Positions 27,715 to 32,185 of a DNA stretch of 64,000 nt are shown piece after piece. Location of the stretch: contig NW_026930103.1 in the NCBI RefSeq assembly GCF_032062105.1, forward strand, positions 620,001 to 684,000, in the 5' to 3' direction. Both the position numbers and the translations under genes were made by a program. The notes under the pieces were generated by a model. That model made no database searches and was not told the DNA's origin. It was given only the letters and a program-made list of their open reading frames with translations. The DNA is from Saccostrea cucullata. Taxonomy: Eukaryota. Each line of letters begins with the position of its first letter. Position 1 is the stretch's first letter.

Positions 27715-30700
27715 CTAAAAATGGTTTACGCTGTCTGCCCCGTTGGTGTCTGTGTTATAATTGGGGACATTGCTGTCTACGGTTAAGCTGCTTCCAAATG
27801 AACTGCTAGAAATCTGTCTGTGGATACTCTGTTTAGCAAAAGACGATGCGAACCCTGCTAACCCTTTCTTCTTTGATTTTGCATCCGGGTGCAGAGCTTT
27901 AAAATATACAGGACATCAAAAACTTTATATTTGAGACCATATTGATTGTTACATTTGCACGTTTTAACTAGAAATTTATGAAGCAGTTTTAAGTACATGT
28001 CGTGATTTACCATTTATGGCGTCAATTTCCTTTGCTGACACACCTGCAGATGAGGCAAGCTTTCGCATTGCTTCGAAGCAAATCTGAAATGATAATGATC
28101 TACTTAGATTAAGGAAGTCAGATGTGCTCTCTAGTAAAATTGAATCTTAAAGTTTGATGGCATGAGCCCATCTTTAAAAAAAGTAAAGAGCATTCCCTAG
28201 CACATAGCAACTTAACACACAATGCTGCTTATTTATTATATTGCAGTTTCATGTATCAACTTTGTGATGTCCTTTTTTGTAATTAAATCATATATGTTTT
28301 AAAAGACTATTAAATATTTTGACTAAAATGCCTTATAACGATCATACCTGTAAATCTTTAGTGTTTGCTTTTGCAGCTTTAAGTTCGGCAGCGATTTGTT
28401 TCTTCTGTTTGTACATCAACTTCATCCGGAAGTGCTCGTGGTCGATTACAGCCACAACCAGACCTGAAAAGGGGAGTTAATCTGGCATTGAGAAGCAATT
28501 CTGATTTCATCATCATTTTCACAAGATACTGGTAAACGATAAACTTCAACACATATTTTAAAACTAAGGTTTTCAGCTGCAGTCCATTTTGTTCCTAAGT
28601 ATGATGAACTTAGTGGACCAAAAACCTTTGGTTTGCTCAGATCTATCGCAGTAGTAGGAGATATTTTGTGTATAAGTAGCTTACCCACCATCTTTTATCT
28701 TGATTTTTATTCAATGTCCCACTACTATTAAAATGCCTTTTTATCATACGGGTGAATTCACTTATTTTTCATCGAAAATGATTTATATACTAGTAGATCT
28801 GTTCTTTTTGCAGGATATTGAAATTATAGAGGATAGATATTCTTAATAGCAGCTTCTCGGGCGTTGTTTTTAGCCGGGCTCATTGCTCGTAGAGCAACAC
28901 TCGGCTTTTGCTACGGTGTTCAACAGGAAATGCTGCTTCATCACCGCTAAATCAAATTTACGCGATAGAATATAGTACGTTGGCGCAATCAACTTTGAGG
29001 CAATACAAACACTGAATTAAATTTTCAAAGTTATCTGAAATTGTCAAAAAATAATTGTAATAATATACTTTCTACCGTGTTCTTCGATTAATTATTTGTT
29101 TGAAATATGAAAAAGGTTTTCATCAGGTATCCATGTCTGTGTCATATTCTATAAATAAACGTTGTACTATCAGGCTAACACAAATGCGGGGAACATCATT
29201 AATGATTGATTGATTGATTGATTTATTGTATACTGTTTAACGTCCCTCTCCAGAATATTTCACTGATATGGAGACGTCACCATTGCCGGTGAAGGGCTGC
29301 AAATTTAGGCCTATGCTCGGCACTTACGGCCTTCGAGCAGGGAGGGATCTTTATCGTGCCACACCTGCTGTGACACGGGGCCTCGGTTTATACGGTCTCA
29401 TCCGAAGGACCGCTCCATTTAGTCGCCTTTTACGACAAGCAAGGGGGTACTGAAGACCTATTCTAACCCGGATCCCCACGGGGCGGAACATCATTAATGT
29501 CTAAATGACTTGATGTACGCTTTGATGCAAAACTCCCCGCTGAGGACGTATGCATCAGTGCATAATCGTTTGACCTTAATTAATCTTGCTGCATCAGTGT
29601 TTATTTACTTCTGTTGGTATAAATAAAACCCATGATACATGTAAAAAATGTTTTTCGCTGTTAAATCTAGCTATATTTTATTTAATTTTGAAACTTTTCA
29701 ATACTATATATGCCATAGAGATATTTTTGTGTGTTACATATTATCCTCTTGATGTCTGAACTTGTTTTTAAAATGTCATCACGGTCTTTTTCATTACCCT
29801 GTAAATGAGCCCGGCTTTCAGTACAAGTTTTTGAGTACTTTGATTTCCGACCTTTGACGGAAAGACCCGAGGAGATGCAGATATTCAATTTCCTCTGGCC
29901 TCATTTTGAAAGTACAGTATTTAGACATGTTTGTACACGGTTTTCTGTCAATAAATTCTTAGATTTTTCATTGCACCGACGTCTTTTATTTATATATAAT
30001 ATAAACCACAGTTCAAGGATGCGCTACTCCTAAGAAACAGGAAACTTACTGTTGACCACTCGAACAACTCGCCACGGAACCAAAAAGGCCAGAATAACCA
30101 CAAACTTCTGAACTTTGTACGCACTCAGCCCTTTAATAAAAACCAAGTCCACGATAAAGGAAGCCACCACTATAAAACCGTCAAATACCTGGAAAAAATC
30201 ATATCGTGTGTTTTTTTTTATTTTTACAGTGTGATTAATGGAGGAGGGTTAGAGTCGTAACAAAAATACCGGTTATTGAGATATGATCTAGGAGTCATTG
30301 AAATTACTTCCAAAGGGCCTGTTACTCACCTCGAGTTTGTTTTCGAAATACTCCTTTCCACTGCTGAACGCCTTTAGTATATTCTAGAAAGAAATAAAAG
30401 AAATGTGTTTTTGAACCAGAGTAGTTTCCCATGCTATTTTTTTTTTATCATAATTCATTGAAATACATCATTTAATCCCGTAAAACCTGTCCATTTGATT
30501 AGAAGAAAGCCTATTAATTCTATGCAAATAACACGACAGGAGTTGTTTTCACAAATACTTTGGTACTGAGCAGAATCTTTGCCGGACAACAAGTAGTGTG
30601 CACTGTACAACAGAATCGACGTAAAACTATGAAGGACTAATGTTAAATAACCTACCTCCACAGCTAAAACTGCCAAAATAGCAATACTGCAATAATGAAA

Positions 30701-32185
30701 ATAGTGTGCCAAGTCAACTTCGATAGGATGATGATCAAAATCATGGTTCTCCTCTATGTCACTTCCGGTTTTGTTGACATGATTCGGTGATTCGGCTGCT
30801 CTTTTTCTTCTGTCAGAATTCGTTGAAGATGCAAAAGTAGTGGTTGTTATATCGTTTGTCAACAATGTGGTCAACATTGGGGTTGATGTTGTCATGGTAA
30901 CCGTTGTTTCCGTCGCCCTCCTGGGTCTGTATGCGCTGTTGAAATCTACTTGAGCCAATAAGATTTTCCTATGAAGATTGTCCAGTTCAGCATAGTCGTA
31001 CTTGTAATTCTCCAGAACTTCGGGATACTGAGCTTTCATGTTGGTGACGAATTTCAGAGCTTCAGTTTCGCCGTGATCAACAACACCTAATATGTATATA
31101 ACAGTCAGAAACTTTATAAATCTAATTTGTTGAAGTAATTTGAAATAGTCCACAGTGCCTTAAATTTGATAACATGAAATACATTTAGTTATTACATTGT
31201 AACGAAAGCAAATGATTATCGGTTTTACTTTTCATGTCTTACAGTGTATATACATGTGAAGTGCATATACAAATGTTTTTTTTTAATATTCAACCAACGA
31301 AAGATAACTGTGATGGATGTTAAAGAGACCTGAATGTGGACCGGAGAAAGTGATTTACTTGTACAAAGAACAAAACACAGTACACGTGCCTTTGTCATTT
31401 GATTACCTTTGAGGTAGTATATATCCAGTATAAGTTCCCCCATCACCAGAATACAGTCCACTATATTGAGGAGTACTATAGCCAGGAGAACCCATTTTGT
31501 GTGCATAAACTTTTCTCCTTTGTATCGAATTCTTAAAATAATAAAAATAATATTTTTAGTATTATGTTTATTTCATTTGACCAGGCCTGATATCAATAAA
31601 TTAAACAGGTATTACTCTAGATGAGACAGTTTTTTTTTTTATTGTTTCGTTAAATACAGAAATATAGGAATAGTATTTTTTACTTTTTATTTCATTATTT
31701 GTTATGTTTTGAAAATGTATATAATGTCCTCATTCATATCAAAGGAAGAATATTAATGCAGTTTGTGTCGAAACTAAATAAGACATGGACTTTTTTTTTT
31801 ATTTCAAAGTTTCTTCTGTCAGTTTTATGCCTTTTATAATCTTACTTTCCAATTTTTGATTTTGGTGGTTTTCTGTTTTCTCGCTCTATTTCGTGTTCCA
31901 AACTCTTCTCAGTTTCATTCAGGACGGCATGTGCTCTCGCTAAGGATAGTGACCCTTCGGCGAGTGCCTGGAAATATGGCACACAAAAAACAAAAACGTC
32001 AAATGAAACACACACCTATATTGAATTTTTGTATTTACTACCACCCGGTATATTCATAAATTACAATATAACAGGACCTCCCCTTTTTTCAAAAATAAAA
32101 ACAGCTAAATAGTTAAATGTTGAAATAATTTTTTTACGTGCAGTCCCTTCGTATTCTTTTTCTTTCTATCACCAAGAAGCCCCAT
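27715..32185 (-). CDS. Voltage-gated proton channel, Hv3-like, paralogue C; 9 coding exons
   Basis: Exons 32185-32138, 31967-31846, 31531-31407, 31086-30656, 30383-30330, 30188-30050, 28463-28348, 28083-28011, 27896-27715. S1 'LNIVDCILVMGELILD', S2 'HYCSIAILAVLAVENILK', S3 'VFDGFIVVASFIVDLVF', S4 'FLVPWRVVRVVNS'. Confidence 0.9.
29205..29484 (-). mobile_element. SINE-like / 5'-truncated non-LTR insertion with 15-bp TSD (Hv-C intron)
   Basis: (GATT)n tail at the left end; exact direct repeat ggaacatcattaatg at 29190-29204 and 29485-29499. Confidence 0.8.

Follow-up and report, generated by a model that had tools for sequence, protein, structure and literature searches.

In molluscs, the unconventional Hv3 proton channels are defined by an S4 motif of the form xPWRxxR and carry a very large S1–S2 loop, as described in the available portions of a 2023 review (PMC10377628) and, for the loop, also in the study of Aplysia AcHv3 (PMC10911540). 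The same portions of the review report many Hv3 genes in bivalves, for which pH control in shell building is suggested as the reason, and announce a manuscript in preparation on the family. A proton-selective current has been demonstrated for AcHv3 alone among Hv3 channels, and the AcHv3 loop was called one without obvious organization (PMC10911540). In mammalian cells, AcHv3 displays an unexplained proton leak, for which its authors weighed several causes and blamed the missing first S4 arginine together with an S4 proline, noting as well that single S4 arginine-to-alanine changes in mammalian Hv1 cause no leak (PMC10911540). A GFP-tagged AcHv3 construct exists. Furin is not mentioned in these portions of the review, in the main and supplementary text of the AcHv3 paper, or in the study of the conventional snail channel HtHv1 (PMC5987876); the review portions likewise do not mention convertases, proteases, or proteolysis, and the AcHv3 paper does not mention Western blots. 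Our literature search, which covered few subscription papers and may thus have missed an existing description, yielded no account of a convertase site in the loop of an Hv channel.

Hv3-type genes in the window

The window, i.e., the whole 64,000-nucleotide stretch of Saccostrea cucullata DNA analyzed here, encodes three tandem minus-strand paralogues: C (about 32.2–27.8 kb), B (20.6–17.7 kb), and A (6.9–1.7 kb). The features on which the following analyses are based are:

31407..31531, minus strand: exon of gene C for S1, containing the selectivity-filter aspartate D82 (nearly invariant in alignment A2)
30656..31086, minus strand: gene C exon encoding the S1–S2 extracellular loop and most of S2; 431 nt, AG/GT flanks, residues ~99–242 of P0001
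30930..31086, minus strand: conserved helical module, in which S1 extends beyond the membrane and a return helix follows, ending at VDF; alignable across molluscs
30917..30928, minus strand: second motif RPRR/AT, found among six orthologues in this species only
30800..30811, minus strand: RRKR followed by AA, full furin consensus; residues 191–194 of P0001, surroundings with pLDDT < 50
30050..30188, minus strand: gene C exon encoding S3–S4, with the Hv3 signature VPWRVVR
28348..28463, minus strand: gene C exon encoding a post-S4 helix, predicted coiled coil (model helix 286–357)
19349..19767, minus strand: paralogue B loop/S2 exon, dibasic VVKR/SV at 19510–19499; a run X1 contig covers the exon
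5575..6029, minus strand: paralogue A loop/S2 exon, dibasic LDKR/SL at 5796–5785 (P0007, LOC134282843)

The translated loop exon of gene C is 100% identical to part of P0001 (LOC134282845), a 429-residue S. cucullata protein. Exons of gene C are joined by GT-AG introns in a transcript contig of run X1, in which 31086–30656 is spliced at both ends, and for paralogue A one contig spans both the loop/S2 exon and the S3–S4 exon (runs X1 and X6). Contigs mapped to genes A and B showed exon cover, with repeats dominating among the joins. Raw reads of X23 and X24 scarcely cover gene C, and expression level is therefore not claimed. High-copy intronic and intergenic repeats (29190–29540, 32495–32670, and 13200–15500) dominate RNA read depth in the window.

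From its sequence, gene C is an Hv3-type (unconventional) proton channel, for which a proton current is predicted. It displays all sequence features of this family, namely the S1 aspartate (at the same position in A, B, and C), the xPWRxxR motif in S4 (VPWRVVR in C, VPWRVIR in A, and VPWRIIR in B), and a long S1–S2 loop (132 residues in C and 140 in A), and, as is the case for Hv3 channels, it belongs to a species with several paralogues (eight here). Conversely, it departs from canonical Hv1 by the missing first S4 arginine, a proline before the tryptophan, and a loop of >130 residues. The initial sequence-only reading presented the proposed cleavage as foreign to canonical Hv1 biology; the proper comparison is with Hv3 (AcHv3), for which the long loop had already been published. 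Unlike in the published loop description, a conserved helical module precedes a convertase motif in the Saccostrea loop, and the C-terminal tails of the oyster genes are much shorter than that of AcHv3 (P0044; 980 aa, with a 299-residue loop that contains two R-x-[KR]-R sites). PF00520 was found on orthologues of gene C, while a Pfam scan of five single exons yielded nothing above the curated cut-off. The AlphaFold model is a four-helix voltage-sensor domain without pore domain (mean pLDDT 75.6), for which the top Foldseek rows were the Ci-VSP sensor and a VSOP/Hv1 chimera, none reaching E 0.001. Longer homologues, sought with alignment A1 among proteins of 1282–3660 residues, were not found.

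Several other elements lie in the window. A gene with a GESAG motif, mostly a single long open frame (50271–52188, minus strand), is presumably carboxylesterase/cholinesterase-like. Two intact, near-identical open frames (41730–42836 and 45639–46781, plus strand) resemble what we take to be Tc1/mariner (IS630-type) transposases, and retroelement-like frames interrupted by frameshifts and stops (53436–58440, plus strand) presumably derive from a Ty3/gypsy-like LTR retrotransposon (gag, protease, RT, RNase H, integrase). Duplicated open frames of one further element, with a Cys/His-rich segment, are found at 37935–40629 and 44055–44423 (minus strand).

Loop architecture and basic sites

Each paralogue had been described as having a loop of over 100 residues encoded by one exon. 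For gene C, the exon at 31086–30656 is correct, although the preceding exon supplies the start of the loop and most of S2 is also included. The arrangement does not extend to the whole family: two exons share the loop of one S. cucullata paralogue (L015:6640–7757, G000 C7050), and the motif is close to the start of the second. The division into a conserved first part and a variable Ser/Thr-rich part holds as described, and N-glycosylation sequons are present, with only one in C, two in B, and six in A. The first part corresponds to the helical module of ~55 residues, in which AlphaFold helix 69–118 continues S1 and is followed by a return helix at 130–142 (pLDDT ~90). As the loop had no usable match in the ESM Atlas and the whole model none in Foldseek at E 0.001, this module is left without an assigned fold. 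The variable segment (residues 160–215) has pLDDT mostly <50 and contains the basic motif, i.e., the furin-type site sits in a predicted disordered segment. All three basic motifs of the sequence-only reading are present, that of C at the position it gave, and its suggestion of a convertase-type site in every paralogue is borne out in full for C only, since A and B are dibasic (KR/S) and, with the P4 arginine absent, their motifs alone prove little. RPRR/AT was considered as a conserved second site in C and rejected, being found in 1/6 orthologues.

The motif of gene C had been expected to recur in orthologues, and R-x-K-R is indeed kept in 6/6 oyster orthologues, with R, R, R, V, I, and I at position x, alanine or serine at P1′, and an invariant alanine at P2′ (6/6). 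By contrast, the flanks of the motif drift among these six orthologues through substitutions, indels, and length changes. A single orthologue was found for each of the other two paralogues, with LDKR/S kept for A and VFRR/S in place of VVKR/S for B. In a broader set of 30 proteins, 29 had the loop: R-x-[KR]-R is present in 16 of them, a dibasic site or RxxR in 12, and neither in one Lingula protein. Eight S3–S4 exons could be matched in the S. cucullata genome, and the full motif is found in 5/8 of these genes, a dibasic site in 2/8 (A and B), and none in 1/8. The latter (L009:4461–4865, G000 C21406) is the sole paralogue without a dibasic loop site and represents a natural negative control. 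The furin motif is kept in L011:9614–9760 (G000 C23227) and in P0035, P0048, and P0061. This genome also encodes convertase P-domains (12 matches to PF01483).

The motif across unconventional Hv loops

We next evaluated the motif across 76 non-redundant loops of unconventional Hv channels. These were obtained from the best 150 of 1184 matches in a search of 50%-identity representatives, for which S1 and S2 could be located in 106/150 (the remaining 44 being mostly fragments or too divergent), after leaving out 27 conventional RxWRxxR channels, 2 unconventional channels whose loops have 36 residues, and 1 whose S1 is incomplete. R-x-[KR]-R was detected in 39/76 loops compared to 3.1 ± 1.6 in whole-loop shuffles (maximum 9 of 500) and 2.4 ± 1.4 in shuffles of the variable part only (maximum 7 of 1000), i.e., a ~13-fold enrichment across the clade, with the caveats that kin share motifs, so that loop counts are non-independent trials, and that the search profile contained loops and may slightly favor motif carriers. 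The signal is strongly directional: the asymmetric form R-[^KR]-[KR]-R occurs in 29/76 loops and its mirror image in 5/76, KR in 36 loops and RK in 22 (chance 22 each), and K-x-[KR]-K in only 2/76 (chance 3.0). Basic runs end in arginine in 84/101 cases in loops vs 97/207 in cytoplasmic tails (p 4e-10).

Residues beyond the motif are similarly biased. R-x-[KR]-R-[AS] is found in 24/76 loops vs 0.4 when shuffled and 3 for the mirror form, alanine or serine occupies P1′ at 28/42 sites (background 0.18, p 5e-12), and alanine occupies P2′ at 17/42. Good furin substrates have serine at P1′ and valine or alanine at P2′, according to the portions of PMC3545927 available, and the loop sites agree with these preferences; consensus and favorable P1′/P2′ residues occur in C and the 39 relatives, A and B having KR/S only. 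No site falls within the first 55 loop residues (0/42, 15.6 expected). N-sequons are doubled in loops (249 vs 120) and not raised in tails, which supports a luminal position of the site.

In a tree built from the membrane helices alone (loop left out), the majority of subclades contain the motif, and in one clade of eight the full motif occurs in 0/8. Carriers include bivalves, gastropods, cephalopods, one annelid, one nemertean, and one bryozoan, for instance scallops, mussels, Solemya, Octopus, Patella, Aplysia, Babylonia, the annelid Owenia, the nemertean Lineus, and the bryozoan Bugula. Seven more divergent proteins, parsed by hand, comprised five with the full motif, one with a dibasic site, and one with none, and P0111 and P0133, outside these counts, are without the full motif. 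Variation in the helices was also seen: glutamate replaces the S1 aspartate in the Hv3-type P0059, P0080, P0089, P0136, and P0150, and P0156 and P0169 have WQ instead of WR in S4. Overall, we consider R-x-[KR]-R a real, conserved, and apparently undescribed feature of the known Hv3 family.

Part of the signal reflects a general tendency of basic residues to cluster, as the excess in cytoplasmic tails indicates: the motif is found there in 12/62 vs 3.4 expected, with lysine versions equally enriched (15/62), at a density of 1.0 per 1000 residues vs 5.4 in loops, i.e., five-fold lower. [KR]R alone is a weak signal (57/76 vs 34.8 shuffled). In 20/76 loops, including most of the clade of eight, the variable part is without any dibasic pair, and a cut is therefore not essential to the family. 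At least two loop cysteines occur in 10/21 loops without a site and 9/39 with one, a clade-confounded comparison that is only a hint that site loss is tied to cysteine gain. Dense O-glycans adjoining a site could mask it. Moreover, the motif by itself is insufficient to predict cleavage (PMC3545927, in the portions available).

Conventional snail channels such as AcHv2 and HtHv1 share with Hv3 a long, His-rich, glycosylated S1–S2 loop; however, they have an RxWRxxR S4 and no helical module, and R-x-[KR]-R occurs in 0/9 such loops, which is a weak control because these loops are almost Arg-free. The Helisoma channel was represented in this comparison by its 360-aa Lymnaea counterpart P0142. HtHv1 gave a single 50-kDa band (PMC5987876), which we set aside as counter-evidence to cleavage since it concerns the conventional type, whose long loops are motif-free.

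A candidate maturation step and its alternatives

The pattern of the loop motif suggests that a furin-type proprotein convertase likely cleaves it, and we estimate a probability of roughly 60% that cleavage, with the two chains staying together, is a selected and functional maturation step. The motif would, with high confidence, face the lumen of the secretory pathway in an unstructured segment and be cleaved in the trans-Golgi or in endosomes. A single cut would free no peptide and would result in an S1 chain and an S2–S4 chain, predicted for C at 22.1 kDa before glycans (N-terminus, S1, and helical module) and 26.0 kDa (S2–S4 and tail). If so, both chains would quite probably remain together by helix packing in the membrane, and would have to stay packed, since conduction requires both the aspartate of S1 and the arginines of S4. 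The cut may then free the rigid extensions of S1 and S2 from their covalent tether, leading to a higher open probability only after exit from the ER, a step on which we lean slightly toward doubt; upon the cut, a restrained precursor would probably become the mature, proton-leaking form. In two-site loops, the peptide between the sites (residues 196–233 in AcHv3) may instead be removed, to the same effect. As a broader and still tentative proposal, with the odds against it, lophotrochozoan Hv3 channels may be zymogen-like: a furin cut between S1 and S2 would split the voltage sensor and turn on the leak, proteolytic licensing would govern the acid flux of calcifying epithelia or secretory vesicles, and the time and place of opening would differ among paralogues according to whether their site is strong, weak, or absent.

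The main rival accepts the cut and denies its effect on gating: as for Dispatched, in which a convertase cut in the first extracellular loop alters membrane trafficking (PMC5811216, in the portions available), it would steer sorting, surface residence, or partner binding. AcHv3 is thought to sit in intracellular membranes (PMC10911540), a long and predicted disordered linker may strain the helices little, and the distance from site to S2 is variable (16 to 192 residues), all of which fit this possibility. It shares all of its sequence evidence with the gating switch, from which it differs in the last step alone, and we regard it as possible, if on the unlikely side. An improbable variant would make the cut an off switch or a signal for turnover, curbing a harmful proton leak; the AcHv3 leak acidifies the cytosol, and separating S1, with its Asp filter, from S4 could destabilize the channel.

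Two further readings dispense with the cut. An uncleaved motif could serve as a basic patch for binding polyanions (glycosaminoglycans or acidic shell-matrix proteins, for example), and the disordered tails are also enriched in basic clusters while some sites are simply runs of arginine. However, a charge patch should be indifferent to direction and tolerate lysine, whereas the loops display the 29 vs 5 directionality, 2/76 lysine equivalents, and a fixed small P1′ residue, the pattern expected from selection for convertase recognition, making this explanation unlikely. Chance in a low-complexity loop could account for KR and RR pairs, which are common (34.8/76 expected), and related sequences do not count as independent, but the full motif reaches 39/76 in 50%-identity representatives, where shuffles never exceed 9, and is invariant in orthologues while x varies. 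Chance is thus largely refuted for the full motif and very improbable overall.

If the convertase-cut, two-chain channel proposed here is correct, Hv3 would have a voltage sensor split between the filter helix and the gating-charge helix, a new mode of proton-channel regulation. The cut could then control the Hv3 proton leak, which bears on why AcHv3 leaks and gates weakly, while the S4 explanation of that leak is simpler and may be enough.

Comparison with cleaved membrane proteins

Among Hv channels, human Hv1Sper resembles the proposal in that post-translational cleavage tunes gating, as far as the excerpts available describe it. That cut reportedly removes part of the cytoplasmic N-terminus, leaves the membrane domain unsplit, and involves no convertase. 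An analogy with loop cleavage in TRPML1 was dropped, as the literature search gave the loop and not the cut. In ENaC, the alpha and gamma subunits have convertase sites in an extracellular loop of an ion channel (RKRR in mouse gamma), where cutting at two sites releases an inhibitory tract (bioRxiv 10.1101/2024.02.12.579964; both points as given in available portions of the sources). Unlike Hv3, ENaC has an unrelated two-helix trimeric fold, and two sites are found in only 5/37 Hv3 loops with a clean site, for which reason an ENaC-like released peptide was rejected as a general rule. Dispatched, a member of the RND family, likewise undergoes a maturation cut by a convertase in an extracellular loop (PMC5811216, in the same portions), although it is transporter-like and not a voltage-sensor channel. 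By analogy with these systems, we infer that Hv3 may work like ENaC or Dispatched without sharing their folds.
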